64,000 bases of DNA from a virus. Where the stretch lies: the IMG/VR virus record IMGVR_UViG_3300020039_000031. The stretch is one strand, 5' to 3'. The notes under the pieces were generated by a model that was not told the DNA's origin, searched no databases, and was given only the letters and a program-made list of their open reading frames with translations. Shown here in pieces: positions 8,162 through 53,262 of this stretch (positions within the stretch are counted from its first letter, which is position 1; every line of letters begins with the position of its first letter). Both the position numbers and the translations under genes were made by a program.

Positions 8162-8173
8162 TTGGTCACCGCC

Positions 8174-9163
8174 TTAGTAGACTTTGTCATAAAAAGTGAG
8201 TGTAAAGTATTGTCTATTCCGTTCATATCCTTTGCAGTAGATCACGTCGCCCTTATGTATCGGTTCCTTATCGAATACCCGATTAAAAACCGTGAAGCGG
8301 CTTTCAACGCCGCTTCCGATCGATTTTGTGATGACGGAATACCCAAACTTCTTTCCGTCACTTTTTCTTGCGAGAGGGAAAACATCGAGAACATAGAGCT
8401 TTCTTCTGTCCTCTTCCTTGCCGGATGTGTATCCGACATAGCCCATAGCGTCGTGGAAGTTTTGTATCTTCACAATGTCTGGCAAATCTTCCAGACGAGC
8501 CGCCATGATTGCATCTTCAACTCCGCGCATGATCGCGTGGATATCCTGAATGACGTAGCTTTTGGACTCAGCGCCATTCTTCGTTTTCCCGTTTGAGTAT
8601 TGTGCGATAATCTCACCGAACGGTGTTCCATCGACAGATTCCTTCTTGATCTGTTTGACCTCTCCGTCCTTTAACAACTGACTGAACACATCAATGATGC
8701 GAAGCAATTCTCTTTGATTGCCGAAGTCGGAAAAGAAATCCAGCTTAACGAGGATCTCAAGTTGGCGCGAGTTTATGCTTGTCTTTGACTTAAGATCGGC
8801 GACCAAATCAATGAATCGTTCATAATGATTCTTCGAGAGGATGAACATTTCATCTGCGAGCTGTTCGCTCATGTACTTGATCGATGTGACACCCTTTGCG
8901 ATGATGTTTTTGTCCCGGTCGAAGTAGTACTCACCTTTGGATACGCCCCATTTTGGCATCGTCACTTTGATCCCGACCTTTGTTGCGTATGCAGTACCGT
9001 TTCTGATATCCTCATCGTTTGCCGCATTGTTCAAAAACGACGTGACAAATTCCAAAGGATGATAGTAGCGATAATATCCACACAGATACCCTAGAAGGCA
9101 ATATGCGATTGAATGATTATCACGCATTCCACCATTACTGGTGGCGTAGACTATATCTTCCAC
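8174..9163 (-). CDS. dnaE: DNA polymerase III alpha subunit (DnaE-type), C-terminal part / exon 2
   Basis: NHSIAYCLLGYLCGYYRYYHPLEF matches the DnaE NKSHSAAYAL...AHYPAEF finger motif; the true 5' boundary is near 9130. Confidence 0.7.
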   Translation of the reverse strand: MEDIVYATSNGGMRDNHSIAYCLLGYLCGYYRYYHPLEFVTSFLNNAANDEDIRNGTAYATKVGIKVTMPKWGVSKGEYYFDRDKNIIAKGVTSIKYMSEQLADEMFILSKNHYERFIDLVADLKSKTSINSRQLEILVKLDFFSDFGNQRELLRIIDVFSQLLKDGEVKQIKKESVDGTPFGEIIAQYSNGKTKNGAESKSYVIQDIHAIMRGVEDAIMAARLEDLPDIVKIQNFHDAMGYVGYTSGKEEDRRKLYVLDVFPLARKSDGKKFGYSVITKSIGSGVESRFTVFNRVFDKEPIHKGDVIYCKGYERNRQYFTLTFYDKVY

Positions 9164-13033: not shown

Positions 13034-14605
13034 GTGATCACATTGACCAGAAAGCAGCAAATCATCATGAGCCACCTGGCCGGGGTGAGCAACCGGCAGA
13101 TTGCATCGAAGATGCACATCAGCAAGGACACCGTGAACAAGTATGTGAAGGAGTACGATGCACAGCGGGCAGAATTGCTGACTCGGGATCCGGATGCAGA
13201 TCCAGAAGAGATTCTCCAGACCTTCGTAGAAGAACCGAAATACGACGCCAGTAACCGCACCCCGGTCATCGTAACGCCGGAGATGGAAGCCGCCGTGGAG
13301 CAGTGCCTACAGCTCAACGCTGTGAAGCGAGTGTCCGGGATGCGGAAACAGGCGATGAGGAAGAAGGACATCCACGAATACCTGGTTCGGGAAGGCTTTT
13401 CTGTAAGCTATTCCACGGTAAAACGGCTGGTGAACAGACTGGAAGCCCGTCATGAAGAGGCGTATATCCGGCAGGAATATCAGCCCGGTGAAACCTGTGA
13501 GTTCGACTGGGGCGAGGTCAAGCTGGATATAGCGAACAGCGGCTTCAAGAGATACCAGATGGCCGTATTCACAGCAGCATATAGCGGGGAGCGATTTGCC
13601 GTTCTCTACTGTTCACAGGATACGGCAGCATTCCAGGAATCCCATACGACCTTCTTTTCCTTCTGTCATGGAGCATTTCACACCATGGTCTATGACAACA
13701 TGAAGGTCGCCGTGCGGAAATTTGTTGGCCCGACAGAAAAGGAACCCACGAACGCGCTGCTGGAGTTGTCTCTGTATTATGGCTTCCAGTTTCGGTTCTG
13801 CAATGTACGCCGCGGGAACGAGAAGGGGCATGTGGAGCGCAGTGTGGATGTGGTTCGCCACAAAGCTTTCAGTGCACCCGGCTGTGACATTTTTGAATCT
13901 CTGGAGTCTGCCAACCGGTATCTGTTTGGCGTATGTGTCAGGCTGAACCGGGAAACGGCATCCAACGGCCAGGTTCCGGCAGAACTCTTTGAAGAAGAAC
14001 AGCGCTGTCTACTGCCGGCCATGCCGAGGTTCGAGTGCTGTATCCGGACGGAAAACAGCGTGGACAAGTACTCTACAGTCATGGTTGCCGGTAATCATTA
14101 CTCTGTGCCGGACACGCTTGTGGGAAAGCGTGTGCAGGTACGTCTTTACACGAGCAAGCTCGTTGTTTACTACGAAAACCGGATCGTGGCGACTCACAGC
14201 CGGAGTTTCCGCCCTCATGACTGGACGATTGACATCTATCACTATCTCCGAACCCTGAAACGCAAGCCCGGCGCTCTGCCCGGCAGCACGGCACTGCTGC
14301 AGTCCGACTCTGTTGTAAAGCAGATTTACGACACTTATTACACACAGGATGCTCGTACCTTCCTCGAAGTTCTGGAGGTCATATACGAGCTAGGCGCGGA
14401 TACTGTACAGCAGGCGCTTAAACGTATGGAGCGTCTGTCGCCGAAGGATATGAGCGCCCAAAAGATCCGCGTCGTATGCGAGAACACACTGCGTAAGGTG
14501 CCTCAGCAGCCGGGTTCTGACCATCTCAGTGAAAAAGCAAAAAGCACGCTCTCTCAATATGATCTGCTCAGACAACTGCAGATGGAAGGGAGTGTCGCTG
14601 TATGA
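13034..14605 (+). CDS. istA: IS21-family transposase IstA
   Basis: 523 aa, N-terminal HTH (QIASKMHISKDTVNKY); DDE region; overlaps istB by 4 nt. Confidence 0.8.
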   Translation: MITLTRKQQIIMSHLAGVSNRQIASKMHISKDTVNKYVKEYDAQRAELLTRDPDADPEEILQTFVEEPKYDASNRTPVIVTPEMEAAVEQCLQLNAVKRVSGMRKQAMRKKDIHEYLVREGFSVSYSTVKRLVNRLEARHEEAYIRQEYQPGETCEFDWGEVKLDIANSGFKRYQMAVFTAAYSGERFAVLYCSQDTAAFQESHTTFFSFCHGAFHTMVYDNMKVAVRKFVGPTEKEPTNALLELSLYYGFQFRFCNVRRGNEKGHVERSVDVVRHKAFSAPGCDIFESLESANRYLFGVCVRLNRETASNGQVPAELFEEEQRCLLPAMPRFECCIRTENSVDKYSTVMVAGNHYSVPDTLVGKRVQVRLYTSKLVVYYENRIVATHSRSFRPHDWTIDIYHYLRTLKRKPGALPGSTALLQSDSVVKQIYDTYYTQDARTFLEVLEVIYELGADTVQQALKRMERLSPKDMSAQKIRVVCENTLRKVPQQPGSDHLSEKAKSTLSQYDLLRQLQMEGSVAV

Positions 14606-15390
14606 CGAGCGCCAAGACGAACGCCGACATAAAGGAACTGTGCAAGATCCTGCGGCTGAACGGTATCGCGAAGAGCTTTGAGACCATGGAGCAGGAAGCT
14701 GCGGACTACGAGGATTTTCTGTACCGAATATTATCTCAGGAACTGCAGGAAGCCGAGGAACGGATGAAACAGTCCCGAATCCGACGTGCCCACTTTCCGT
14801 ACAAAAAATATCTGGAAGACCTTGAATTGGAATGCTTGCCAAGGGATATGCGCAAGCGGCTGCCGGAGCTCGCTGGATTGGACTTCATCCGCAACGGCCA
14901 AAATCTCATTCTCACCGGCAATCCCGGCACTGGAAAAACACATGTGGCCATTGGCCTCGGTATTCGAGCTTGCGAGCAAGGCTTCCGCGTTCTGTTCACC
15001 ACTGTTCCATATTTGGTAACAGAACTGAAGGAAAATGTGAATGCAAAAACGCTCAAGGCGTTTGAGAAACGGTTTGAAAAGTATGATTTGGTCATAGCCG
15101 ATGAGATGGGCTATGTCTCCTTTGACCGAGAGGGCGCAGACCTCCTGTTTACAAACCTCTCTCTGCGCGCCACCCAGAAATCCACGATTATTACATCCAA
15201 CCTGACCTTTGAGCGCTGGGACGAGATATTTGGCGACGCTGCCATTACCAGCGCCATTGTGGACAGACTCACCTACAAAGCCATCCTGGTAGATATGGAG
15301 GGCGACTCATATCGTTTCCGCGAGACCCTCCGTGCCAATGGAGCTTCTTTTGAACGACTGATGGAGGGTAAGAACGATGCCAAAGCTTGA
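14602..15390 (+). CDS. istB: IS21-family helper ATPase IstB
   Basis: Walker A GNPGTGKTH, Walker B VIADEMGY. Confidence 0.85.
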   Translation: MTSAKTNADIKELCKILRLNGIAKSFETMEQEAADYEDFLYRILSQELQEAEERMKQSRIRRAHFPYKKYLEDLELECLPRDMRKRLPELAGLDFIRNGQNLILTGNPGTGKTHVAIGLGIRACEQGFRVLFTTVPYLVTELKENVNAKTLKAFEKRFEKYDLVIADEMGYVSFDREGADLLFTNLSLRATQKSTIITSNLTFERWDEIFGDAAITSAIVDRLTYKAILVDMEGDSYRFRETLRANGASFERLMEGKNDAKA

Positions 15391-24788: not shown

Positions 24789-25390
24789 CTGCCTTTCATC
24801 ATTTCCAGTTGGTTCATCATTTCATCAAGAGCCTGCTCGCGTTCTCTGCCCGCAAGCTCCTGTATGCGATCGATATCTTTTTGTACGACTTGCGCAAAGC
24901 TCTCCATCTCAGCGTTTTGTCTATCTATTTCTCTGCGCAGTTTAAGTTCCCTCTCGACCTTTCGTCTGAAGCGATTGTATTTCAAGGCCTGAAAATAGTT
25001 TTTGAAGTATATACGCTGTTTACCTTTGTAGATCGGTTGTGACGTAGGAGAATACGTCAGTGTTATGTATTTTTCTCCATTGGGGATGGTTTTCTCACAA
25101 AAAACCCTTCTCGTTTCGTACTCTTCGTCACAGTAGGCAACCGCGTACCAGTCGTTGTCAATCTCGTATCGGTTAGGATTGATAGCGAAAAAAGAGGCGA
25201 ACTGATCAAATGTCAATTTAACAGAAGAATCGTACTCTCCGTCCGTTTTTGATTTTCTGTAACTCATTGGACTGTTTGAACAAAACAGATCTAGCAAGAA
25301 AATAGGCAACCCAAGCACCATCGTGAATGCCCAAAATAATACAAAAAGCCTCAACTTACATACCCTCGGTCGTGATGAATTCCCGCCCAT
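24785..25390 (-). CDS. membrane-anchored coiled-coil protein
   Basis: N-terminal TM helix, C-terminal heptad-rich region. Confidence 0.35.
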   Translation of the reverse strand: MGGNSSRPRVCKLRLFVLFWAFTMVLGLPIFLLDLFCSNSPMSYRKSKTDGEYDSSVKLTFDQFASFFAINPNRYEIDNDWYAVAYCDEEYETRRVFCEKTIPNGEKYITLTYSPTSQPIYKGKQRIYFKNYFQALKYNRFRRKVERELKLRREIDRQNAEMESFAQVVQKDIDRIQELAGREREQALDEMMNQLEMMKGR

Positions 25391-27584
25391 CGTCCGATGC
25401 GTAAAACATCTTGCGGAGCGTGCAGATATCCTTCGGGATCGTGTCTACATCATCACGGTCATGGAGTGTGCGTACCCAACCGTAAAAACGATTGGCAAGC
25501 GCTGTCGTCAGAGCTGATGTACGTTTACCGTCAATATGACCTTTGCGGATAGCCTCGTGCGCAACGCCGCGCATAAATTTCCAGAAGTTGTAGTAAGCCA
25601 GCTTGAGCTTAATCATATACCCTGTTGAATCTTCGATTACAAAGCCTTCGATATGGCGTCCTTGGTACATGTATTCCGGGTCTGTTACTTCGTAATACCA
25701 GTCAAAGAATTCGGGCCACTCATGAAGCACGAACGCTTTTTCCTTGCAGCGCAGGCTAAAAGCGGCGGCGACCTCTTTCAGTTGCTCATACGGCATCTTC
25801 GTGCATTTCAGGTCGTTTTTGATAATGTCCAGCAGGTAGAGACAGTTACCTGAATACTCAATGATGTGTGGATCATGAACCATGTCCACACACTCGAAGA
25901 CCATCGTGACATCATTCTCTTTCAGATATTGCTTGATGCGCTCGCGAACACCGGGAGCGACCGTCTCAAAAATCCCGCGCAGCCAAACAGCGTAGTCTCC
26001 GTCCGGAGAGGATTTGGTTGTGATAAATAGATTATCCTTGTCATGGTCATAGCTGATCAGGCTGAGGAACCCGTTTTCTTTCACATACGCAGTTACCGGG
26101 AAGACCAGCTTGGATTCCAGCATATCGAATTTCGTCTCGGGGCGCTCATTGATATTGAAGAACTTATCGTAAGCTCTTGCCACGATCTTTGCCTTTGGGA
26201 CATTAATGTAAAGCCCGCGTGCCTTCATCGTCTGCTCGTCCCACACCTTATCGTAGAATGCGCTCTTGGTGAAATTAAAGGATGAGATGTCTCCGTAACG
26301 TTTCTCTTGAATGTACTTGTTCTCCCGCATTTCGAGGATCACATCAGCAACATTCGTTGTCTTTTTGGGCTCATATACAACGACCTCTTCCGGCTCACGA
26401 AAAACCGTGTTCTTGATTTCCACCGTCTTGAAACCATCCGCTGACAACTGGACTACACGGAGCTCACCGCCAAACTCGACCCGTCCTTCCAGATTGAACA
26501 CTCTCTCATTCACCTGAACCGGCAGATGCTTTGTGTTCCGATGCCCGTGAATTTGATATGTATTCTCTGGTGTATTCGCAACAAAAGCGTTGGCGACCTT
26601 CTCGAAATCGTTATAGTTCCCCACGCCCTTGATCATCTGCTGAGTAGCTACGAGCGTCATGTTCTCTGGAATACAGCTCAGGCCGGCATGAGTTACGAGA
26701 ACCGTCTTATCACCGTATGAGTACCAAGCGCACTGTCCCATACGCCGGTAAAGTTGTCTCATTGCCTTTCGGTCAATCTTCGCGTCCTGAAGTTCTGCCT
26801 TCGTGTGCAGTTCAAAATCCTTGGATTTCGCCACTCCATCACATCCATACGTCCAGAGCCAACGCTCATGATTGCCCTCAAGGAGAAGTACGTTATCACG
26901 CCCGACAATATCCATGAGGAAGTTGATCACCTGTACATTCTCGATCCCTCGGTCAATGTAGTCTCCGCAGAAGATGTAGAACTCATCATCTTTTAGCGTC
27001 CCCTCATTATTGAAGTACTGTTGAAGTACTGTCCAGCATCCGTGAATGTCACCGATATGATGAATCTTCTTATAGTTGGAAAGATCGATCTTCCGCATCC
27101 ATATCTTATCCAGCTCATCCGGCTGGATGACCGTGATACCGGACGGGATCTTCTGCGTGGCAAACCTCGCGTACATACGGTCGATCGCCTCGTCAGGAAC
27201 CTGTTTGATCTCGGGACGCATCTTGTTCTGTGCCTTGCACCATTCGATAGGCAATCCGGTGAAGTCAACGCAGTAGATACGGTACCGGTATGTATCGCAC
27301 ATGTCTTTATAACGCTTCATCTCGATCGTTTTGGAGTTCGTGGCGTCGATCACCGTGAACGCGCCGTTCTGCATACGAGTTTCCAGCAGGCGAAACAGCG
27401 TATTCCAAACCACCTGATCGCTCGTGACATTGATCGCCCGCCCTCCGTCAACCGTCATGACCGGTCCGGCGCACATCAGACGAATATCATCAGCGGACAG
27501 CGCGTATGGCGTCAGCCCGTGTTCTTTGATCCATGTCGTCTTGCCGCAGCCAGGAGCTCCGCGCAGCAAAAGCAATACTCTCAT
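25356..27584 (-). CDS. polynucleotide kinase-phosphatase with ligase-like C-terminal domain (Pnkp-like RNA repair enzyme)
   Basis: P-loop GAPGCGKTT; calcineurin motifs GDIHGC/GDYIDRG/GNHE; ligase motif I KENG, EGFVIED, KLKL. Confidence 0.65.
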   Translation of the reverse strand: MRVLLLLRGAPGCGKTTWIKEHGLTPYALSADDIRLMCAGPVMTVDGGRAINVTSDQVVWNTLFRLLETRMQNGAFTVIDATNSKTIEMKRYKDMCDTYRYRIYCVDFTGLPIEWCKAQNKMRPEIKQVPDEAIDRMYARFATQKIPSGITVIQPDELDKIWMRKIDLSNYKKIHHIGDIHGCWTVLQQYFNNEGTLKDDEFYIFCGDYIDRGIENVQVINFLMDIVGRDNVLLLEGNHERWLWTYGCDGVAKSKDFELHTKAELQDAKIDRKAMRQLYRRMGQCAWYSYGDKTVLVTHAGLSCIPENMTLVATQQMIKGVGNYNDFEKVANAFVANTPENTYQIHGHRNTKHLPVQVNERVFNLEGRVEFGGELRVVQLSADGFKTVEIKNTVFREPEEVVVYEPKKTTNVADVILEMRENKYIQEKRYGDISSFNFTKSAFYDKVWDEQTMKARGLYINVPKAKIVARAYDKFFNINERPETKFDMLESKLVFPVTAYVKENGFLSLISYDHDKDNLFITTKSSPDGDYAVWLRGIFETVAPGVRERIKQYLKENDVTMVFECVDMVHDPHIIEYSGNCLYLLDIIKNDLKCTKMPYEQLKEVAAAFSLRCKEKAFVLHEWPEFFDWYYEVTDPEYMYQGRHIEGFVIEDSTGYMIKLKLAYYNFWKFMRGVAHEAIRKGHIDGKRTSALTTALANRFYGWVRTLHDRDDVDTIPKDICTLRKMFYASDDGREFITTEGM

Positions 27585-39329: not shown

Positions 39330-39406
39330 TGGTGCGCCAGAGAGGACTCGAACCTCCGACAGGCAGATTAAAAATCAGCTACTCTAACCATCTGAGTTAC
39401 TGGCGC
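39330..39406 (-). tRNA. tRNA-Lys (anticodon TTT)
   Basis: GCGCCAG...CTGGCGCACCA; D-arm ACTCAGATGGTTAGAGT; anticodon loop tTTTTaa; T-arm GGAGGTTCGAGTCCTCT. Confidence 0.65.
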
Positions 39407-41115: not shown

Positions 41116-41631
41116 TTACAAATAGGCGTACTGTCCACGCCCAATTTGATCAACAAGCTCAAAACCGCTATTGTTTTTATTGCGATAATGAGAAAACGTA
41201 TGATAACGATCGTCCTCATCAAAAGACGGCGGTTCAAATACGCGAATCATGCGATCCATTTCCTGCTCTGGGATGACACGACGACGCGACCTGTTGTTCT
41301 CTCGGCACAGCTCTTTGTCTGTCTCAATGTAAATAAGATGTGTTTCAAAACCCGGAAACCAGTCAAGGAGCTGGATTCTACCAACATACGTTGGATTATT
41401 CGTATCGAAGATCGTATCGATTCCCTGTTGCTCTGCCATATGGAGCGCACGGAACAATGCCATCCAGATCTCAAACTCATTGATGTGTTTACGATCATCG
41501 CCGTTGAATAGGCGATAGAAATCATCAGGGCAGAGATAATGCAAATGATCTTCCTCAGCGTAGCTCTTAGCGAAGGTGGTCTTGCCGCTTCCGCTAAGAC
41601 CGCACATCATGTAGAGCTTCGGCTTACTCAT
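41116..41631 (-). CDS. P-loop kinase, ribosylnicotinamide-kinase (NadR C-domain)-like
   Basis: MMCGLSGSGKTT Walker A; sits directly downstream of PnuC and the NMNAT. Confidence 0.45.
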   Translation of the reverse strand: MSKPKLYMMCGLSGSGKTTFAKSYAEEDHLHYLCPDDFYRLFNGDDRKHINEFEIWMALFRALHMAEQQGIDTIFDTNNPTYVGRIQLLDWFPGFETHLIYIETDKELCRENNRSRRRVIPEQEMDRMIRVFEPPSFDEDDRYHTFSHYRNKNNSGFELVDQIGRGQYAYL

Positions 41632-42379
41632 TGGTCGCGTTCCTCGATTTGTTGAGCTTATACCAGTTGATAAGACCGATTACAGCCATAATCAGGTAGA
41701 TGGATTTCTTGGTCAGATACACGGTATCGAAGTGTACGATGTACATAGCCACCGCGACGATATCCGTAACGATCCAGAGAACATACTGCTCACGATACCG
41801 GAACAGCTCAAGGAACGTGGCAATGATGCCGATCGCGACCGTTGCCGCGTCAAGCCACGCAACCGTACCGCCGACGCGAACAAGGATCGCGTGATAGATC
41901 ACCGTAGAGATACCGACGACGCCGACCACAATGGCGTCCTGCCACCATGTCATTTTCCTCGCCTTTGTCAGCTCCTGCTGCGTCTCATCACGATGCCTCG
42001 ACCATGCGATCCACGAAATGATATTTAGAGGGAGATAAAGGAGGAGTTCGAGACACATCGTGCCGTAGATCTTCCAGTACGCCAGATACACTATGTACAC
42101 GACCGTATTGACGAGGCCGAACCCGAAGTTTGAGATACTCGCTCTGGCACAGAAGAAAATGCAGACGACGCCACAGACCGCGCTGACAAAGTTGACGATC
42201 GTGAGCCACGCAGGATTCTCGCTTGACGCAGGATCAACGAACGCCGTTACCATCGCGTATGCGGCGATCACGACCATGATGCCGGCCATGACCCATTCGT
42301 ACCATTTCAGGCTCTTGAAAGAACGGATCAGATTGCGCTCACTCTTTTTGATGCTCATATTGCCTCCTAAATAATCCAT
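41624..42379 (-). CDS. pnuC: PnuC-family nicotinamide riboside transporter
   Basis: 7-TM profile with Trp-rich helices typical of PnuC. Confidence 0.55.
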   Translation of the reverse strand: MDYLGGNMSIKKSERNLIRSFKSLKWYEWVMAGIMVVIAAYAMVTAFVDPASSENPAWLTIVNFVSAVCGVVCIFFCARASISNFGFGLVNTVVYIVYLAYWKIYGTMCLELLLYLPLNIISWIAWSRHRDETQQELTKARKMTWWQDAIVVGVVGISTVIYHAILVRVGGTVAWLDAATVAIGIIATFLELFRYREQYVLWIVTDIVAVAMYIVHFDTVYLTKKSIYLIMAVIGLINWYKLNKSRNATNE

Positions 42380-42882
42380 TGTTTTGCTTCTTCGATTCCC
42401 ATTTCGCGAACCGCTGTCGCGCTGATGGGAACTTCTTTTCTCTCTGGATCAACTAGTTCGTAGGTCGCCCACGGATAGGCTCTTTTGAAATACGGCGCGT
42501 ATTCCGGCTCGCTGCCAAATACAGCGTCGAACCGACCGCACGCCTCAAGAACGATCGGCGTTTCCATATCCCAGCTTTCCTCACCGTTCTCATCCCGACA
42601 TGACGAAACGTCAATGACAACCGGGATCACGTTATCAAACATGGCGGCAACCTTTTCGATCTGTTGCTTACGCGGCTCAGGATCGGTAAGAACTCTATGG
42701 TAAATCCCCATAAAACTCTTACGCCTGATCTCTTCTTCCTGTTTCCCGCCAAGCACCAGCAAAAGATAAACCACGTCGCAGAGCGACGCGGCGTATTCGA
42801 GGCAATGTAAATGCCCCTTATGGAACGGCATAAACTTGCCGCCATACATACCTGATTTGTATTTCTTCATAGCACAGCACAC
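42367..42882 (-). CDS. nicotinamide-nucleotide adenylyltransferase (cytidylyltransferase fold)
   Basis: GGKFMPFHKGHL = (H/T)xGH nucleotidyltransferase motif. Confidence 0.65.
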   Translation of the reverse strand: MCCAMKKYKSGMYGGKFMPFHKGHLHCLEYAASLCDVVYLLLVLGGKQEEEIRRKSFMGIYHRVLTDPEPRKQQIEKVAAMFDNVIPVVIDVSSCRDENGEESWDMETPIVLEACGRFDAVFGSEPEYAPYFKRAYPWATYELVDPERKEVPISATAVREMGIEEAKQWII

Positions 42883-43226
42883 ATAAAAGTATTCAGCATA
42901 TCGCAGAAGTCTTCATCCGGCTGGTCGTCGTCCTCTACTCCTGTGAGAGCACTTACGGCATCTTCATATGAAAGCGTGGTTTCAGAAGGGATGTATCTGC
43001 CGCTCCAAAGCACAAAGCAGATTCCCTCCTCATCATCATTATCCATACCGATGTGCATGTATGTCGTGTCCGTCGGGTTGTTCTCCACATACTCAACGGA
43101 TAGCGGGTGATGCTTGAAGCCGTATTCGACCAGCAGATCGACCATCATATTGCGTTCCTCAACGGTCTCGCATCGGATGAAGTAATGATCTTGTATAAAG
43201 CATTTGTCAAATTCTTCTCGTGTCAC
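42867..43226 (-). CDS. hypothetical protein, tandem paralog A
   Basis: shares T(R/H)(E/D)EF...CETVEER...L(L/V)E.G with 43223..43600. Confidence 0.4.
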   Translation of the reverse strand: MTREEFDKCFIQDHYFIRCETVEERNMMVDLLVEYGFKHHPLSVEYVENNPTDTTYMHIGMDNDDEEGICFVLWSGRYIPSETTLSYEDAVSALTGVEDDDQPDEDFCDMLNTFMCAVL

Positions 43227-43600
43227 CTGTACGCCACTCCCATCAGCGAGGCGAGCTCGTCATCGAAACCTTCCAACAACACGCCATCTTCATCGTCTGG
43301 GCTTGAAAGCACCTCGACAGCTTCTTTGTAAGAAATCACAGACGAAAAACTGGACGCATGTGCCCATAAGCAGAATGTTTTGCCATTACTGTCGATTCCG
43401 GGATACATGTACATTTTACTCGCCGGATTTCTGATATAGTTTTCTTTTGACTCCGGATTTCTTGGTATTCCGTTTTCCTCAAGAAGCTCACAGATATGCT
43501 CTCGTTCTTCGACCGTCTCGCATTTTACGCTGATCTTATGTTCTGTATCAATGAACGCTCTTAAGAATTCGTCGTGTGTCATTCTCAGATCGCCTTTCAT
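43223..43600 (-). CDS. hypothetical protein, tandem paralog B
   Basis: see paralog A; overlapping stop/start. Confidence 0.4.
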   Translation of the reverse strand: MKGDLRMTHDEFLRAFIDTEHKISVKCETVEEREHICELLEENGIPRNPESKENYIRNPASKMYMYPGIDSNGKTFCLWAHASSFSSVISYKEAVEVLSSPDDEDGVLLEGFDDELASLMGVAYR

Positions 43601-43705
43601 TCAGAATAATGGGGCTGGGAGACCAGCCCCACGATGTACCCCATCCGTGTGCTGACACACGTGTTAGTCAAGTCAGCACATGCACTGAGCCGCCGTCGGA
43701 GACAT

Positions 43706-43744
43706 TTTAATTTTCAATTTCGCTGAAATTGAAAATTAAAATAA
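43706..43744. repeat. perfect 18-bp-arm palindrome ATTTTAATTTTCAATTTC-gc-TGAAATTGAAAATTAAAAT
   Basis: read directly from the sequence. Confidence 0.9.
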
Positions 43745-43883
43745 GGCACCGACGCAGCTACCATTCCGAAACTTCTGCGGAGCGCAGAAGCAACTGCCGA
43801 AGCGGATATGTATCGACAATTCATCTGCATGGGGTACAAAAGCCGCGCCTGCGGTTTCGCCTCCCGCCTGACGCGGCCTATTA

Positions 43884-44432
43884 TCAAACCGGTGATAGGA
43901 TAAGGTCGGCCGCTTCATCTACGAGAGCGGCGTCCTCTTCATCCGCCTTTACAGCATCCTCCATAAGCATCTGGAGATGACCCTGGCCGGAAGAAATCAC
44001 GAACGCGAAGTCGATTTCCACGACGGGCTCATCGTCATCTTCCGGTTCTTCGTCACATTCTCCGCCGACGAATTCATCGTACCAGTCGTACTCGTCTTCT
44101 TCATCCTCTTCCTCTTCATCCCATTCGCCGTAATGGTCCATCCAGTCAAGGACATCCTGCTTATAGGCGCGGAAATCTCCGTATTCGTCAAGACCTTCAT
44201 AGTCGAGCCAGCCATTGCGGTGGTAATACGAGTAATCGCCCTCCGGAAGATCGTTCAGGCAATCCCGAAGAGTGCTCCAGCCGCAGTCGCGGTCGCAGAT
44301 ATCGTCTTCCACATTGCTTTCATAGTCTTCTTCGTCAATGACATCATCACACACTTCAATGCCGTAGTCCTGGCAGAACTCCATGAGCTCATACCATTCA
44401 GTCACGCCATCGACAAATTCCTGCCTTGTCAT
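43884..44432 (-). CDS. highly acidic protein
   Basis: start moved to MTRQEF, which has a GGGAGG RBS; the longer ORF start would overlap tRNA-Thr. Confidence 0.45.
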   Translation of the reverse strand: MTRQEFVDGVTEWYELMEFCQDYGIEVCDDVIDEEDYESNVEDDICDRDCGWSTLRDCLNDLPEGDYSYYHRNGWLDYEGLDEYGDFRAYKQDVLDWMDHYGEWDEEEEDEEDEYDWYDEFVGGECDEEPEDDDEPVVEIDFAFVISSGQGHLQMLMEDAVKADEEDAALVDEAADLILSPV

Positions 44433-44458
44433 AATAATACCTCCCATAGTATTTTGAA

Positions 44459-44534
44459 TGGAGCTGGTAGGGGGACTCGAACCCCCGACCTGCTGATTAC
44501 AAATCAGCTGCTCTACCAACTGAGCTATACCAGC
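44459..44534 (-). tRNA. tRNA-Thr (anticodon TGT)
   Basis: GCTGGTATAGCTCAGTTGGTAGAGC...GCTGA-tTTGTaa-TCAGC...GGGGGTTCGAGTCCCCC...CCAGCTCCA. Confidence 0.75.
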
Positions 44535-44535
44535 A

Positions 44536-44611
44536 TGGCGGCGGCGGTCGGAATCGAACCGACATCGTTGGAGTCAAAGTCCAATGCACTAACCGATTGT
44601 GCTACGCCGCT
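44536..44611 (-). tRNA. tRNA-Gln (anticodon TTG)
   Basis: anticodon arm TTGGA-cTTTGac-TCCAA, T-arm GTCGGTTCGATTCCGAC, encoded CCA; position 1-72 looks like an A-C mismatch. Confidence 0.6.
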
Positions 44612-45234
44612 GTTCACTATCTGCAATCGATATAGTTGTTCCTGTTTCGTACTGAAGTATCCAAGCGGGAGAGTCTCCTCTGGTTTCCGGCTATGCAGTG
44701 CAGCCGATTCCGGTTTGCTTTGTTTTATGTTAGCCTTGGATCTTAGGATCCGAGAGCTTCGTCCAACTCGGTACTGGGCCCGGCTCGCTTGTTTCATCGC
44801 CTTGGTGTCTTCTTCGTCGCCAGATCTAGGCGGCACTTCTGCGGAGCGCAGAAGCATACATCTCTCGATGTATCATTGCATTGCAGATAGTTGTTATTTC
44901 CTATGATCTACATAGAGATAGCCTTGCAAGTTACCAGGTGCTGCGGCAGCCAACTGCGCACATACAGATGATCTTCCATCTTCAGAAAAAGGTTTCTTGG
45001 TGTCGTCGAGACTCGCATGTCCATTGCAGTGCAGGCGTCTTCAGGGATGCTCGCTATTACTCCTTTTCCTGTCTTCAGGTTAGATGATCCGTCGCTCGTG
45101 GGGCGGCGCAAGGCTACGGCCGCGGCCGTAACCTGCCTGACATCGTCACCGTAACTTTTCGTAACTTCTGCGGAGCGCAGAAGCACCGCCAAAAAAAACA
45201 TGGCGGTTATTTCATCATAGGAATTATCCTTTGA

Positions 45235-46374
45235 TTATCGCTTTAAGTCCTTTCGGATCATCGCAACGATATCCGCGTTGTATTTTTCTCCGATGTGCTT
45301 CACCATATCGTCGATCGCCTCGCGTTCCACATTGCGATAGTAGTTGCGAAGACCCTCCATAACTTGGATATCATGGAGATCCCACTCGATCCCGTGTTGC
45401 TTATCTGACACATACGCCGTGATCATTCCACGGAACTGCCTTCGCGCCTGAAGCCCGATGGTGATCTCGTTGTCTCTTGTAAGCATCAGACCGAGATTCC
45501 AGTTTGAGCCGGACGATGAGCCGTACCGCGTCTTTTTCTCATTCAAAACGTGTGGAGAGTTGAATTGCTTATGTACGTCCTTGATGAGTCGTTCAACAGC
45601 GTGGATATCAAAGTCATACTTCGACGATACGATCGTATCGTCAGAATACCTTGTGTAAACGAACTGCTGCTTCTGAAAATCCCGGAACGCATTGGCGAGC
45701 GTATAGTCGATGGGGATCATCAGGATGTTCGTGAGCGTCGGAGAGAGCGGAGTCCCCTGCGGGAGACCTCCATTCAAGAAACCGAGCTCCACAGCTTTTT
45801 CGAGCTGTTCCTTTCCCTGGTCGATCTTCATGACCTCCGAAAACGGGAAAATCATTGACAGCATCTGCATCGACCATTCCAGCGTCGTGTTGCCGAAGAA
45901 ATTTGATAGATCCAGCTTGCCAAACCACTTGCTTTCGTTGGCCTGATGGCGCTTAACGGCGTCGATCGTACAGCGCTTTTTGACATACGCAAACGCTGAC
46001 GTGTGATACAGCGCCCTGAAATCAGACTCGAACATCCGTTTCAGATCACGAAGTGCCGTCATCAAATCCTCACACGGCGCGTCGATCCTGCGAAGTCCAC
46101 CGGATTTCTTGGGGATATAGAATTCATAATAGAGTTCTTTGCGCGGCTGCTGACGGAGAAACTCCGTCCGTTCATTGAACTTTATGAGCTGTGAGATCAG
46201 ATATGGAACGCTGATCGTGCGCAGAAAATTGTTGCTGACATGCTCAACAGCGTATGTTCGTGTATTTGCCGTGCTGTCGTTTATCATCAGATTTCCGCGC
46301 CGCTTCTCAAATAAGAATTCCTCCAATGTAAGCTGATGATACATCGGAGACTGCATAACCGTTATATACGTCAC
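45235..46374 (-). CDS. reverse transcriptase (non-DGR, class unassigned)
   Basis: IPKKSGGLRRI (motifs 1/2), LDLSNFF (A), GLPQGTPLSPTLTNI (B'), YTRYSDDTIV (YxDD); GTG start with AAGGAGG RBS 7 nt upstream. Confidence 0.85.
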   Translation of the reverse strand: MTYITVMQSPMYHQLTLEEFLFEKRRGNLMINDSTANTRTYAVEHVSNNFLRTISVPYLISQLIKFNERTEFLRQQPRKELYYEFYIPKKSGGLRRIDAPCEDLMTALRDLKRMFESDFRALYHTSAFAYVKKRCTIDAVKRHQANESKWFGKLDLSNFFGNTTLEWSMQMLSMIFPFSEVMKIDQGKEQLEKAVELGFLNGGLPQGTPLSPTLTNILMIPIDYTLANAFRDFQKQQFVYTRYSDDTIVSSKYDFDIHAVERLIKDVHKQFNSPHVLNEKKTRYGSSSGSNWNLGLMLTRDNEITIGLQARRQFRGMITAYVSDKQHGIEWDLHDIQVMEGLRNYYRNVEREAIDDMVKHIGEKYNADIVAMIRKDLKR

Positions 46375-46682
46375 TCGATCACCTCCTTATTCAGTAGTGT
46401 GATTGTAACCTTTGTTGAGTATTGCTGACCGCTTGCCAGGTCGGCGCCAATTGCACGCTCGAGCTGGATGTCTGAGACCAGATCCATTCTGAGGATGAGG
46501 ATCGGTTCCAGAAAGCTGCAGTGCAATTGCTTCCCGTGCGTGTCTGCTGATGAGATCGCGATGACTGCAGTTGTACAACTCGGAGGTGGGTCGTCATCTG
46601 GCGGACTGATTTCGATCGAGTCTGACCATCGTCCCCTTGTCGCCTTACCTTTTCGATACTCCTGCGGAGCGCAAGAGTTCAC
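46371..46682 (-). CDS. possible small ORF in the RT leader (overlaps the RT start as GTGA)
   Basis: 103-aa ORF with weak coding character; the region may instead be non-coding RNA. Confidence 0.2.
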   Translation of the reverse strand: MNSCAPQEYRKGKATRGRWSDSIEISPPDDDPPPSCTTAVIAISSADTHGKQLHCSFLEPILILRMDLVSDIQLERAIGADLASGQQYSTKVTITLLNKEVIE

Positions 46683-46726
46683 TCTAACGAATGAAATACG
46701 TTACAATCTTGTTGGCGGTTTAAGGA

Positions 46727-47488
46727 TCACCGCAAACCGAGGAAACTGAAAAGATCGTCGTCGCTGTATACTTCCTCTGTATCATCGACCTCGAAAGCTC
46801 TTAACGTGTAGACGCCATCCGCTGTGATATCCACGATCAGATCTCCGCTGATCCGGCATTTTGGACGAAGACCAGCGCGATGAGCCGGTTCAGCAGACGA
46901 TCCGTAACCGTCTCTGCCTACCACATGAACCCTCGTTGACGCCTCCTTCGGCGTAGAAGTCCAATATGATACATAGGACGATGCCTCATAGCCCTCACGC
47001 CAGAATCGATTGCGGAAATCTTGTGACGGATGCGGACGAATGCCCTTCCGCTTGAACAGAGCAAAATTGCTTCCATACACATTAAAGATGTCATTGAATT
47101 CCGGCAGTTGAACGCCGCCGGATATTGCCGCGATCTCATAAGGCTCGAAGGCGTAAAGAAATCCGCGACGGTTCGCATAGTCGCCGTGAAGCACGTCGTA
47201 CTCGTGCATATTATGGAACCAGACCGCGTCCTCGCTGTTGAGGAACTGATAGATATTGGACAGTTCGTATGTATTGTTGCCGTACCATTTGTGATCGTTG
47301 ATCGGCGAACCGCGTTCGCGGGCGTCAAAAACCAACGAATCGAGCGCGTATTCCGATATAAAATCGCAATTTGGACTGGCTTTCAACCAAATGATCGGCA
47401 CGCCGGCTGCGTTCGGCGAGGGATCGCATGTGTAGCGTCCGAACTGAAGCCTTGTGCCGACCTTCAGGTCTTTGATTTTCCTATCCAT
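46727..47488 (-). CDS. C-type-lectin-fold (DUF1566/Lcl-like) protein
   Basis: FWREGYEASSYVSYWTSTPKEASTRVHVVGRDGYGSSAEPAHRAGLRPKCRI resembles the YWSST...AW.V.F..G...G.RPV.R signature. Confidence 0.4.
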   Translation of the reverse strand: MDRKIKDLKVGTRLQFGRYTCDPSPNAAGVPIIWLKASPNCDFISEYALDSLVFDARERGSPINDHKWYGNNTYELSNIYQFLNSEDAVWFHNMHEYDVLHGDYANRRGFLYAFEPYEIAAISGGVQLPEFNDIFNVYGSNFALFKRKGIRPHPSQDFRNRFWREGYEASSYVSYWTSTPKEASTRVHVVGRDGYGSSAEPAHRAGLRPKCRISGDLIVDITADGVYTLRAFEVDDTEEVYSDDDLFSFLGLR

Positions 47489-47510
47489 GGGGTACCTCGC
47501 CTTCTGCGCC

Positions 47511-48182
47511 TCAGAATGCGTCGCACATCATGCCGAACGCATCGTCGAGCACCAACTTCTTCAGAGGCTTGCCATTGATGAAGTTCATGAAGTTCGCCAC
47601 GCCTCTCGCACAGATGATGCGAACCGTCGGGCACACGCCCAGCGTGACATTGCAGGCGGACACCGGCGTCTCTTCCTTCGCCTCATCGTGAGAGAACTGC
47701 ATGGAGTTGAGCAGATCCTTCTTCATCTTCTCGTCGTTCCAGTCGGCGGCGTAGTGCTGCGCGTCCTCCAGACGAGTGCGGAAGTCGAAGATCGCCTTGA
47801 CGAACGTAGAGTCCATGTGCTTTTCCACGATCTCCCGGCGCAGATCGATATTGTCCACACACAGGAAGATATACCCGGACAGGAGCTTGCCCTTCCAACC
47901 ATCCGGCTGGAGAACCAGATCGTCCACGATGTCCGGGTTGATATCCATGAGGATATCCTTCAGCGCTTCGACCTTCGGCATCCCGATGTGGCGGGCGAAG
48001 AACATCTGATTGACGATGTTGTGCGCCTCCACCGTGTCAAAATCCCAGAGCGTCATCTTTGTGACGCCGCTTCTCGCGAGGTTCTCCGCGACGGTCGAGC
48101 CTACGGAACCACATCCGATGATGTGTACCCTCGCGTCATCCTGATCGGGATTGAAATACTCGTAGCTTTTCGATAAGTCCAT
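47511..48182 (-). CDS. minimal E1-like enzyme (ThiF/MoeB family)
   Basis: VHIIGCGSVGSTVAENLARSGVTKMTLWDFDTVEAHNIVNQMF = Rossmann GxGxxG plus the DxDxVE.SNLNRQ-like ThiF signature. Confidence 0.7.
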   Translation of the reverse strand: MDLSKSYEYFNPDQDDARVHIIGCGSVGSTVAENLARSGVTKMTLWDFDTVEAHNIVNQMFFARHIGMPKVEALKDILMDINPDIVDDLVLQPDGWKGKLLSGYIFLCVDNIDLRREIVEKHMDSTFVKAIFDFRTRLEDAQHYAADWNDEKMKKDLLNSMQFSHDEAKEETPVSACNVTLGVCPTVRIICARGVANFMNFINGKPLKKLVLDDAFGMMCDAF

Positions 48183-49126
48183 TACTTATCCTCCCTGAAG
48201 AATACGTCGGAATAACCGAACGGGCCATACGGATCTTCATCCTCGTCAGAAAACCCGGCGAGCGTTGTCTGACCGCTCGCGTTCGCGCCAGCCCACCCGG
48301 CTCCGTACTTGGTCCGCTTCTTGTCCTTCTTGTTCTTTTTGGAGTTGGCCGGTTTCTCAGGGGGCGTGCTCGGAGCCTTGAGCTGCGTCACGTTGTTGAC
48401 AACGGACGTTGCCGGCGTCGGAGCGGGGACGGACGACGAGGGAGGCGGTCCCTTATATGTCGGCGCAGTGTATACGCGATCCTTGACCATTTCCTTCGCC
48501 TCGCGGATGAACTTGGCAATCCCGTCTTCGCTTTCGACCACATGCACGACCACATCGCCTGTCTCAAACAGCGTGTTCTTCTGGAGATCGAAGATCTTGA
48601 TCGTCTTTTCGCCGCGCTTGTTCCAGATCAGGAAGATGTAGAACATGTCGTCGTCGAGCTGCTCCAGGATCTTCTCCTGATGCGTGACATCGACACCCGA
48701 AGGAGCCGGATTCATATACACATGGCTGTGACCCTGCATACGAATGTTGTTGAACACATCGTCGTCGAACTGGTAGAGCCAGTCCTGATAGCGCTCCTGA
48801 TCCGTGTTGACTGTCGCGCCAGTCACTTCCTGGGGGTAGACGAGAATGTCCTCGATGTAGTAGTCGTCGCCTTCACCCTCTCCGCGATGCGCGACGCCGT
48901 GCCACGCGACCTCCTTGTCGAACTCACGAAGAAGCGCCCACATCTTCTCCCACGCTTTCTCCGAGAAGTACAGATTTGCCTTCCGATCAATCGCGTCGAA
49001 GGTTCTTGTGAAGCTCATCTTTCCATCCGTGCAACGGACGGAGAGGATCGCCTCCGCAAATTCACGCTTGAGCTGTTCCCGGTACTCGTCCGTCATTTTG
49101 ATGATCTTACTCATCTGCCGCCTCAC
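48182..49126 (-). CDS. JAB/MPN (JAMM) metalloprotease-domain protein with Pro/Lys-rich tail
   Basis: GHSHVYMNPAPSGVD = HxHx7Sx2D JAMM motif; overlaps the E1 gene start. Confidence 0.7.
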   Translation of the reverse strand: MRRQMSKIIKMTDEYREQLKREFAEAILSVRCTDGKMSFTRTFDAIDRKANLYFSEKAWEKMWALLREFDKEVAWHGVAHRGEGEGDDYYIEDILVYPQEVTGATVNTDQERYQDWLYQFDDDVFNNIRMQGHSHVYMNPAPSGVDVTHQEKILEQLDDDMFYIFLIWNKRGEKTIKIFDLQKNTLFETGDVVVHVVESEDGIAKFIREAKEMVKDRVYTAPTYKGPPPSSSVPAPTPATSVVNNVTQLKAPSTPPEKPANSKKNKKDKKRTKYGAGWAGANASGQTTLAGFSDEDEDPYGPFGYSDVFFREDK

Positions 49127-50594
49127 TTTCTGTATTTTCCGTTGTGGTACTCGCCTTTTCCTGTTCCTCCAGCCACTTGATCGCCTCGATCGGCGTCACT
49201 ACGCGGCCGTCAGGAAGCTCGAATGCCTTGTTGTTGTAGTTTTCTCTGCCGCATACCGTCTTCAGGAACGTGCCCATCACCGTACCGTCTGTCCAGTTCA
49301 AGCTCTTGGCAGACGCGACACACTGTTCCAGCGCCGCGATGTAGTTGTTTTCCTTGAGCAGGTTGTTTACCTTCGACAGGTAATTCCCCATACAATGCCA
49401 GCGATTGATATGCGGATTCGGCATATAATGCCGAAACTCCTGTCCGAAATCGTGGTTTGTCTGCGGATCGACGTTCCCGTTCAAAGAGAAGCAATACGCA
49501 GCGCAGAACCGGAGACGGATCGACTGATCGATGAATACCGCACGCAGGAGCTTTTCCATCTGATCCAGCGTGAAGCCTCTCGGCTCGTTTTGATAAACGA
49601 AACTGCCGTGATTGTTGAGATACTTGTTGACGACATCCTCGTCGAAGTACTCCATATAGGTCTTCACTGAGAAGTAGATCGTATCGTTAACCACATCCTC
49701 GATAACGAGCTGGCGGTTGCACAGAAAATACTCCATCAGCTCGGAGTCCTCGTCGGAATAGCCGGCGATCTTTGCCTGCAATCCAAGGAGGCGAATATTT
49801 TTCTCGTTGATCATGCGCATTTTTGTTCCGATATCTGTATTCAATATGGCGATGTTTTCATACAGATTGGCGATTTCGCGCTCGACCTTCTGCACTTCAT
49901 TGCGCTCATACCTCGTCTCAAAACCACGGAGCAGCGTCTTGATGCGGATCGTCTCGAAATCGTACTGCGATGCGATCTTATTGATGCACTCGATGTACTT
50001 ATCCGGCGTGGTTTCTTTGAAAGACTGCATCAGCTCCTTATCGAGATCAGACCACCCCTTGTCCGGGCTGAAATACCACGGCAGGATGCCGAGCGTTATG
50101 CTCTGCAGGAAGTGCATTCGCTTCATGTTGAGCGATTCCACGAACAGAATCGTACTCTTCTGCTCGGCGTTGATATAGCAGAGCACGTTGAAGTTCTTTC
50201 GGAACAGATTGGTGATCTCTTCGATCTGCCGCCATCCGTGATATGTGGCGGCGAAGTATGAATGCAGGCAGTGATAGCACGCCAAGTTGTTCGCGGAGAT
50301 CGGGCTGCCAAGATTGTGGATCTGGAGATAGCCATGGCTCGTCACATCCCACGAGCCGCAGATTGCGCGAATGATAGCATCGGCGCTATTGTTTTTGACA
50401 TGATCTTCTGTTATGTTCGAGGTAGAAAACCTCAGCTCGATCGACTCGTTCTCCGGGATACGCTGTCCCATAAACGCACGCAGGGTGGCGAGGAACGAAT
50501 AGTCTCCCTGATACGCCTGACCGCGAATGTTCTGGAAGTATCCGTTTGCCGCATCCGTTGTGAACGGCGTCGATGTGATCGGCGTCTTGAACAC
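49107..50594 (-). CDS. hypothetical 495-aa protein, first gene of the JAB-E1 cassette (possible E2-like)
   Basis: C-terminal region PNPHINRWHCMGNYL faintly resembles a UBC HPN...C segment; overlaps the JAB start. Confidence 0.4.
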   Translation of the reverse strand: MFKTPITSTPFTTDAANGYFQNIRGQAYQGDYSFLATLRAFMGQRIPENESIELRFSTSNITEDHVKNNSADAIIRAICGSWDVTSHGYLQIHNLGSPISANNLACYHCLHSYFAATYHGWRQIEEITNLFRKNFNVLCYINAEQKSTILFVESLNMKRMHFLQSITLGILPWYFSPDKGWSDLDKELMQSFKETTPDKYIECINKIASQYDFETIRIKTLLRGFETRYERNEVQKVEREIANLYENIAILNTDIGTKMRMINEKNIRLLGLQAKIAGYSDEDSELMEYFLCNRQLVIEDVVNDTIYFSVKTYMEYFDEDVVNKYLNNHGSFVYQNEPRGFTLDQMEKLLRAVFIDQSIRLRFCAAYCFSLNGNVDPQTNHDFGQEFRHYMPNPHINRWHCMGNYLSKVNNLLKENNYIAALEQCVASAKSLNWTDGTVMGTFLKTVCGRENYNNKAFELPDGRVVTPIEAIKWLEEQEKASTTTENTESEAADE

Positions 50595-53170: not shown

Positions 53171-53262
53171 TGGTGCCGGGAGCAGGATTCGAACCTGCAA
53201 CAAGGGAGCGACCCTCACCGCAATAAAAGAGCGGCGCGTCTAACCGGTTCCGCCATCCCGAC
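53171..53262 (-). tRNA. class II tRNA (long variable arm), anticodon not confidently assigned
   Basis: 92 nt GTCGGGA...3-bp D stem...variable stem AGGGTCGCTCCCT...GCAGGTTCGAATCCTGC...TCCCGGCACCA. Confidence 0.5.

Follow-up and report, generated by a model that had tools for sequence, protein, structure and literature searches.

Organization of the locus

We analysed a 64,000-nucleotide (64-kb) stretch of viral DNA, IMG/VR record IMGVR_UViG_3300020039_000031 (hereafter the window), in which a short palindrome recurs around a gene for a retron-type reverse transcriptase (RT). All genes around the repeats lie on the minus strand, and the RT gene is followed on that strand by a tRNA-Gln/tRNA-Thr pair and a gene for an acidic protein (Table 1). 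The sequence CTTCTGCGGAGCGCAGAAG is found exactly at 43772-43790, 44836-44854 and 45165-45183 (copies 1, 2 and 3), and a variant with three mismatches, CTCCTGCGGAGCGCAAGAG, is found at 46659-46677 (copy 4). No further copy with up to three mismatches was present in the 64 kb, and none was expected by chance (100 shuffles). The four copies reported in a first-pass annotation are thus real and non-random, and their positions relative to the genes had been given correctly.

The palindrome consists of 8 + 3 + 8 nucleotides (nt), 19 nt in total, rather than the approximately 30 nt first attributed to it. On the minus strand it reads CUUCUGCG-CUC-CGCAGAAG and forms an 8-bp stem with a 3-nt loop, which we refer to as SL2, and conservation on this strand runs about 25 nt past the hairpin (T.[AT]CGAAAAGGTA.GGCGACGA). 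In copy 4, a T-A pair is replaced by C-G (a compensatory pair) and a C-G pair by U.G, with pairing kept on the minus strand; on the plus strand, these changes produce a C.A mismatch. The flank originally quoted with the palindrome, (T)TTCG(A/T)A(A/T)A, is present at three copies and is replaced by GGCGGCA at copy 2. The possibility that SL2 is an intrinsic terminator was rejected, as it had been before: the sequence 3' of the copies is TTTCGG, TGCCGC, TTACGA or TATCGA, with a U-tract in none, and no SL2 copy was called in an intrinsic-terminator scan. Outside the window, the exact 19-mer was found once in IMG/VR, at 3096-3114 of locus L001, inside an open reading frame (ORF) of an unrelated 170-kb contig, where it lacks the surrounding module and is not recognized by the covariance model described below.

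The four RNA units

Each SL2 lies near the 5' end of one of four non-coding units of 204-326 nt, designated U4, U3, U2 and U1 in their order along the minus strand. The units share the same anatomy: a terminal helix that is specific to the unit, with 9-12 perfect pairs between a 5' arm (a2) and a 3' arm (a1), followed inside the helix by a variable hairpin (SL1), SL2 and a fast-diverging interior. In all four units, an unpaired G after the 5' arm faces a G before the 3' arm. The closing complement of U4, the unit that forms the leader of the RT gene, is perfect over 9 nt. Unconstrained minimum-free-energy folding of each unit recovered the closing helix, SL1 and SL2.

The palindromes had been thought to bracket discrete cassettes, with copies 3 and 4 flanking the RT gene and copies 1 and 2 flanking the acidic-protein gene together with the two tRNAs. 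Each copy is instead an internal hairpin of its own unit, located 31-48 nt after the 5' end of the unit. Copy 4 belongs to the RT leader and copy 3 to the next unit, whereas copy 2 lies in the third unit and copy 1 in the fourth, past the acidic-protein gene; this gene and the tRNAs are merely located between U2 and U1.

Table 1. Features of the RT locus in the window, in their order along the minus strand
Feature	Position	Strand	Details
DUF6273 protein gene	46727-47488	minus	upstream of U4
U4	46401..46708	minus	308 nt; RT leader, msr-msd-like non-coding RNA; SL2 is copy 4; a2 46708-46700 GATTGTAAC (GAUUGUAAC-G in RNA); candidate branching G 46699, unpaired; SL1 46694-46679; SL2 46677-46659; interior 46658-46411; opposing G 46410; a1 46409-46401 GTTACAATC (GUUACAAUC)
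U4 interior motif	46526-46517	minus	TTGCACTGCA
Retron-type RT gene	45235..46374	minus	379 aa; GTG start; YSDD; starts 26 nt after U4 a1
U3	44898..45223	minus	326 nt; starts 11 nt past RT stop codon; SL2 is copy 3; a2 45223-45214 TTCCTATGAT (UUCCUAUGAU-G in RNA); G 45213; SL1 45207-45185; SL2 45183-45165; opposing G 44908; a1 44907-44898 (AUCAUAGGAA)
U3 interior motif	45034-45025	minus	CTGCACTGCA
U2	44616..44891	minus	276 nt; begins 6 nt after U3 end, stops 4 nt before tRNA-Gln; SL2 is copy 2; a2 44891-44880 ACTATCTGCAAT (ACUAUCUGCAAU-G in RNA); G 44879; SL1 44873-44856; SL2 44854-44836; opposing G 44628; a1 44627-44616 (AUUGCAGAUAGU)
U2 interior motif	44703-44694	minus	CTGCACTGCA
tRNA-Gln	44611-44536	minus	within array, right after U2; ARAGORN, Rfam
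tRNA-Thr	44534-44459	minus	within array; ARAGORN, Rfam
Acidic protein gene	43884..44435	minus	between tRNAs and U1; homologues in same place in L002 and L174
U1	43635..43838	minus	204 nt; distal subclass, with GATACATA before SL2; SL2 is copy 1; a2 43838-43829 TGTACCCCAT (UGUACCCCAU-G in RNA); G 43828; spacer hairpin 43821-43792; SL2 43790-43772; long A+T-rich hairpin 43759-43688 (~30 bp); second hairpin 43680-43648; opposing G 43645; a1 43644-43635 (AUGGGGUACA)
G+C-rich hairpin	43611..43632	minus	GGGGCTGG/CCAGCCCC; just past U1; T-tract weak; read from sequence

We constructed a covariance model of the 80-nt module around the hairpin and scanned both strands with filters off. In the window, where the four sites were themselves among the training sequences, the model found only these sites, all on the minus strand and all internal to non-coding units. 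In loci outside its training it found 24 sites, all on the RT strand. The model covers only six base pairs of SL2 and is weak on units of the distal subclass to which U1 belongs, with U1 scoring 19 bits and its counterpart in the closest relative (U1' of locus L174) being missed.

A second repeated motif, (C/U)UGCACUGCA in RNA and (C/T)TGCACTGCA in DNA, is shared by the interiors of U4, U3 and U2 (Table 1), at a distance of 149-151 nt from the start of SL2. The interior of U3 folds as a single long imperfect rod, with this motif at its tip. A related UGY-NNN-RCA hairpin was detected in 35 of 115 units of relatives, compared with 9 in shuffled interiors, mostly at 100-175 nt.

Two further explanations of the interiors were tried and rejected. 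ORFs of 97-110 amino acids (aa) span U4, U3 and U2 in the window, but among 113 non-redundant units open frames numbered 24 in sense and 19 in antisense; stop depletion is slight and the interiors are T-poor, and the units are not regarded as coding. A diversity-generating retroelement was dismissed given that none of the interiors recurs within the 64-kb window and that the RT is of the retron type rather than of the type found in such elements.

Conservation in related phages

Members of the RT family were detected in human gut and rumen data, in 132 stretches of IMG/VR and at least 401 metagenome stretches, with contigs reaching approximately 250 kb. The family amounts to 4641 protein clusters (E<=1e-10); one exact RT protein is present on at least 1000 contigs. 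Databases name its members only "RNA-directed DNA polymerase" or "hypothetical protein". Among reference genomes, the family occurs in metagenome-assembled genomes only, of which eight of nine are assigned to Clostridia and one to Alistipes. A blastn search against GenBank phages matched tRNAs alone, and there is therefore no cultured relative.

More than 170 related gut and rumen phage loci have the same layout, with 2-7 units each. When SL2 was described as a structural pattern (CU..., 5 bp, optional bulge, 3 bp, 3-nt loop, ...AG-U), 415 matches were obtained on the RT strand compared with 10 on the opposite strand. An SL2 copy was present 250-420 nt upstream of the RT start in 85 of 87 loci and 25-75 nt after the RT stop in 84 of 89, with a further copy about 290 nt beyond the post-RT copy in approximately 67 loci and up to seven copies in some. 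Non-redundant units (n = 115) have a median length of 299 nt. Units remote from the RT make up a distal subclass, in which the spacer after the G is longer and SL2 is preceded by GATACATA; further members were found at L005:12011 and 12400, L133:7271, L159:7216 and L163:2188.

In an alignment of 23 diverse RT leaders, two conserved elements were complementary to each other: CUGUAAY-G, which lies about 25 nt 5' of the hairpin, and G-RUUACAG, which immediately precedes the ribosome-binding site of the RT. For the closing helix and SL2 together, 92% of cells in this alignment were paired and double changes were apparent in 13 of 18 pairs; none of 500 shuffles reached these values, and slid controls were 24-42% paired. 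Unguided analysis of 12 leaders with RNAalifold yielded the same closing helix, SL1 and SL2, and the same elements were obtained for 13 post-RT units including U3 of the window, with compensatory changes in 18 of 26 pairs. Taken alone, the z-scores for folding of single leader sequences (-1.1 to -1.4) were not informative. In a wider search, closing helices of at least 9 nt with a G after the 5' arm were detected in 271 of 478 units compared with 7 of 478 shuffled controls. The G after a2 was imposed in this search, whereas the G before a1 was not, and the latter base is a G in 106 of the 115 non-redundant units. An SL1 hairpin of at least 5 bp was present in 104 of 113 units, with SL2 being present in every detected unit by construction.

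The stem sequence of SL2 varies between phages with compensating changes. Among SL2 hairpins with one non-Watson-Crick pair, G.U outnumbered A.C by 88 to 11 on the sense strand, and the structure has therefore been selected in sense-strand RNA rather than in duplex DNA or in the template strand. This strand preference bears on the possibility that the palindromes are single-stranded DNA hairpin promoters of the phage N4 type (short stem, 3-nt loop), each driving the downstream unit. N4-type promoter hairpins form on the template strand and have a purine at the loop centre. The stem and loop dimensions of SL2 resemble those of N4 early promoters, and the copies are clustered and upstream of units. 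The template here, however, is the plus strand, on which copy 4 has a C.A mismatch and which the wobble pairs disfavour, and the template loop of the commonest lineage is TTT, which is not purine-centred. SL2 also lies inside the fold closed by a2 and a1, so that the 5' arm would go untranscribed, and no gene for a giant virion RNA polymerase was seen in the 64 kb visible. A promoter function of this kind is thus very improbable.

The apical 9 nt of SL2 differ at 1.36 positions within a genome compared with 3.40 between genomes, and the window apex GCG-CTC-CGC was found only in its own four units. We also sought relatives without the RT, in which the units might be present or absent as blocks; all 20 loci found via the neighbouring ThiF-like gene carry the RT, and the five of these loci that were searched with the covariance model all carry units as well.

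Scans of the window for sigma-70 promoters and terminators gave nothing tied to the units. Gaps between units and their neighbours are 18, 11, 6 and 4 nt, which leaves no room for separate promoters, and the units would be transcribed together with the flanking genes. Given that the units adjoin genes and tRNAs with gaps of only 4-18 nt, the primary transcript must be processed, a point in favour of the view that SL2, the terminal helices or both serve as signals for RNA processing or stability, with RNase III or a similar enzyme dividing a long transcript into the RT mRNA, the tRNAs and further fragments. RNase III sites had been suggested in the first-pass annotation. The closing helices of 9-12 bp could indeed be nuclease substrates, and the suggestion is retained as a possibility for them, whereas for the hairpin itself it is unsupported, 8 bp being short for RNase III. 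A processing role would in addition leave unexplained why the G/G pair is conserved, why SL1 is present and the elements keep a constant order, why the association with the RT is strict (20 of 20 relatives identified via ThiF) and why the apex is genome-specific. We regard it as an improbable account of the units.

The closest relative, L174, encodes an RT that is 84% identical in protein sequence and shares with the window all four units, both tRNAs and the acidic protein, with the tRNA-Gln/tRNA-Thr pair again following the U2 counterpart. In this counterpart a2 and a1 have changed together (ATTATCTGCAAT with ATTGCAGATAAT), and U1' likewise has compensating arms (ATCCCCAT with ATGGGGAT) as well as an interior hairpin that differs in sequence and is again long and perfect. 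The 3' arm of SL2 is changed from CGCAGAAG to CGUGGAAG in L174, yielding two G.U pairs. Nucleotide identity between the window and L174 is 77% for the RT gene, 64-65% for flanking genes, 69-83% for the 5' modules of the units and 51-57% for unit interiors, compared with a shuffled baseline of 50%. Divergence of the interiors has therefore reached saturation, yet the folds are retained. In the 115 non-redundant units (L002-L164), interiors have a sense-strand composition of A 0.305, C 0.265, G 0.227 and T 0.202; they are A/C-rich and T-poor, and any complementary DNA (cDNA) would therefore be G/T-rich.

The comparison with L174 also addresses the earlier proposal that the palindromes are recombination sites (attC-like or similar) delimiting mobile cassettes. 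The number of units does vary among relatives (2-7), and L174 has an extra DNA ligase gene (7782-9047) inserted right after its fourth unit, U1', with no counterpart at that place in the window. The segments between the repeats are nevertheless not exchanged as blocks, their order and content being syntenic in the window and L174. Furthermore, the repeat lies inside each unit rather than at its edge, its G.U pairs are strand-specific, as expected for a structure in sense-strand RNA, and no recombinase is encoded nearby, with no integrase within 30 kb and the only transposase being that of an IS21 element 30 kb away. Recombination sites are the least probable of the explanations considered here and can hardly account for the repeats.

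The reverse transcriptase

The RT matched Pfam RVT_1 (5e-17), and all of its 25 best PADLOC matches were retron RT models, with the best being RT_II-A (4e-41). Its best NCBIfam model was the retron St85 family (1.3e-45, 156 bits), far ahead of the group II intron (1.3e-20, 73.9 bits), Drt2 (9e-11, 41.5 bits) and Drt3a (27.6 bits) models. The nearest solved structures are those of the retron RTs Ec83 and Ec78. The catalytic site YSDD is intact, being YSDD or YADD in all relatives, and the protein has a conserved NH2-terminal extension of approximately 60 aa. Judged from these sequence matches, the RT is a member of the retron or retron-like clade.

Neighbouring genes and other features of the window

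Directly upstream of the RT, the region 46727-50594 (minus strand) encodes a ThiF/E1-like protein, two proteins without a family match and the DUF6273 protein; the ThiF/E1-like protein matches CBASS-type E1-E2 models over about 70 residues. The acidic protein gave no match in Pfam, PHROG or PADLOC. The G+C-rich hairpin just past U1 is possibly the end of the transcript, although it was not called in the terminator scan. Two adjacent small paralogues without a family match follow it (42867-43226 and 43223-43600, minus strand).

Elsewhere on the minus strand, an NAD-salvage-like trio (41116-42882) comprises an AAA_33 kinase, a PnuC-type nicotinamide mononucleotide transporter and a cytidylyltransferase-like protein, with the same trio being present in L174. 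A 742-aa protein (25356-27584, minus strand) in which an AAA_33 kinase and a metallophosphatase are fused to a T4 Rnl1-type RNA ligase looks like a tRNA repair enzyme. The window contains 11 tRNA genes, among them a tRNA-Lys(UUU) called at 92 nt, which is unusually long (53171-53262, minus strand), and a second tRNA-Lys(UUU) of normal length at 39330-39406. The IS21-type insertion sequence (13034-15390, plus strand), with an IstA-like transposase and an IstB ATPase, is among the few long plus-strand ORFs of the window.

Comparison with retrons

By definition, a retron non-coding RNA (ncRNA) has terminal inverted repeats and two opposing Gs, contains one to three msr hairpins as well as an msd stem-loop, and lies beside a specialized RT (Mestre et al., PMC7736814). 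The RT of Ec86 needs an 8-bp stem with a three-base loop in the msr, and that of Ec73 a 9-bp stem with a three-base loop; this msr hairpin is bound by the COOH-terminal region of the RT with cognate specificity (Simon et al., PMC6868368). At the window locus, the ncRNA is contiguous and co-oriented with the RT gene, given that U4 ends 26 nt before the RT start codon. With respect to the long stem-loop of an msd the units differ, U3 folding as a single rod and U1 having a hairpin of about 30 bp, whereas U2 and U4 are branched. We consider that the palindrome is probably the conserved second hairpin of four tandem minus-strand retron-type ncRNAs (msr-msd units), the putative templates for the neighbouring RT. 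SL2 is a candidate for the recognition or docking hairpin of the RT, which is its most likely role, and the most economical reading appears to be that each unit is a separate RT template docked through SL2. The earlier suggestion that the copies are binding sites of one regulator comes close to this explanation in that a single protein would bind them all, the protein in this case being the reverse transcriptase.

In the mechanism that we propose, each unit would fold by pairing of its own terminal inverted repeats, a2 and a1, and this pairing would set the unpaired G after a2 opposite the G before a1. The RT, encoded after the first unit, would bind SL2, which is identical or nearly identical in all four units despite their differing surroundings. 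It would then prime from the 2'-OH of the unpaired G and extend cDNA into the variable interior. The outcome would be up to four different RNA-DNA molecules resembling multicopy single-stranded DNA (msDNA) produced by one enzyme. In an engineered Ec86 "multitron", tandem msr-msd units carried by a single transcript are served by one retron RT (PMC10370050).

Several points weigh against this interpretation. RT binding, 2'-OH priming and cDNA synthesis are all inferred from characterized retrons. The RT score of 156 bits is below the cut-off of 235 for the St85 family, and the protein falls in no named retron RT family. In an alignment with Ec83, NAKIH of the NAXXH motif is replaced by AVKRH and VTG by NLG, with only H and G being retained, the most conserved residues of the two motifs according to Mestre et al. 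(PMC7736814). The interiors of U2 and U4 adopt branched folds rather than one long msd stem, interior folding is only modestly more stable than that of shuffled sequences (mean z, -1.35), and the identity of SL2 within a genome could be due in part to gene conversion. No effector of a known retron type was detected with PADLOC among 10 neighbouring proteins, where only the ThiF/E1-like match was obtained; given that only about a third of annotated retrons carry accessory ORFs (Simon et al., PMC6868368), this negative result is compatible with membership. No Rfam retron msr model was among the matches listed for 43400-46800 at E values of up to 5, and Rfam at gathering and permissive thresholds returned only tRNAs and noise. 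Finally, in a literature search with most subscription-journal papers outside its coverage, only engineered arrays were encountered, and neither natural retron arrays with multiple ncRNAs nor this phage RT family had been described.

Some of these points fit an alternative in which the units are structured ncRNAs with SL2 as a protein-binding hairpin but are not reverse-transcribed, acting instead, for example, as regulatory RNAs, sponges or operon-control sites for the RT or a different protein of the phage. Fold, strand and conservation of the units agree equally well with such RNAs; the departure of the RT from NAXXH and VTG, its scores below the family cut-offs and the failure to find an effector are further points in favour. 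A terminal helix with two facing Gs (106 of 115 units), however, has no known role outside retron priming, and the units adjoin a retron-type RT whose catalytic YSDD or YADD is intact in all relatives. A regulatory site, moreover, would not require 2-7 complete units with their own closing helices. We therefore consider this alternative unlikely, albeit the most serious of those examined.

The proposed retron-type array resembles bacterial retrons, the nearest being those with the St85/Sen2 (type II-A) RT family, in its upstream and co-oriented ncRNA and retron-clade RT, in the a1/a2 repeats with opposing Gs at the helix end and short hairpins after the G, and in a variable structured template region accompanied by a hairpin of recognition size (8-bp stem and 3-nt loop, as for Ec86 and Ec73; PMC6868368). 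It differs from them in being carried by large gut and rumen phages, not in cellular defence islands or as prophage cargo. Where a bacterial retron has one ncRNA per RT, the array has 2-7 units, the majority of which lie downstream of the RT with tRNA genes interspersed. The units are also long (median, 299 nt), with some branched interiors, no effector is recognizable among ten neighbours, and the RT is of greater length (379 aa), falls short of the family cut-offs and carries AVKRH and NLG in the two signature motifs. The engineered multitron is alike in containing several complete tandem msr-msd units on one transcript served by a single RT (PMC10370050), but it is a laboratory Ec86 construct with a repeated identical msr, whereas the array described here is natural, with each unit having its own closing helix and only SL2 being shared. 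DRT2, DRT9 and similar ncRNA-templated defence RTs also combine an RT with an adjacent structured ncRNA template. The RT studied here, however, scores 156 bits with the retron model compared with 41.5 bits for Drt2 and 27.6 bits for Drt3a, the a2-G/G-a1 priming geometry is specific to retrons, and the unit interiors show no sign of an ORF.

Biological implications

With regard to function, our guess is that the msDNA products act against host defences or competing phages. The genomic surroundings (tRNAs, the kinase-phosphatase-RNA ligase fusion and NAD salvage genes) might be taken as compatible with a counter-defence role. A broader and more tentative proposal, which we put forward as a possibility with less than even chances, is that one phage RT serves a natural array of 2-7 template RNAs sharing only the docking hairpin, and that the resulting repertoire of distinct msDNAs made in infection consists of interchangeable, fast-evolving effectors such as decoys for DNA- or RNA-sensing defences or guides against competitors.

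Known retrons consist of one RT, one ncRNA and an effector and protect bacteria against phages, whereas here the architecture of retron priming belongs to phages, no effector was found with it and each enzyme has several putative templates. Approximately 1.1 kb of previously unexplained intergenic sequence in these phages can also be annotated as RNA genes, and the RT of this lineage ranks among those assembled most often from human gut metagenomes. Should the units prove to be reverse-transcribed, they would constitute the first natural retron array in the literature searched and would offer multiplexed retron engineering a defined docking hairpin together with closing helices that are compact and orthogonal. 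It would also follow that phages make msDNA for their own purposes.

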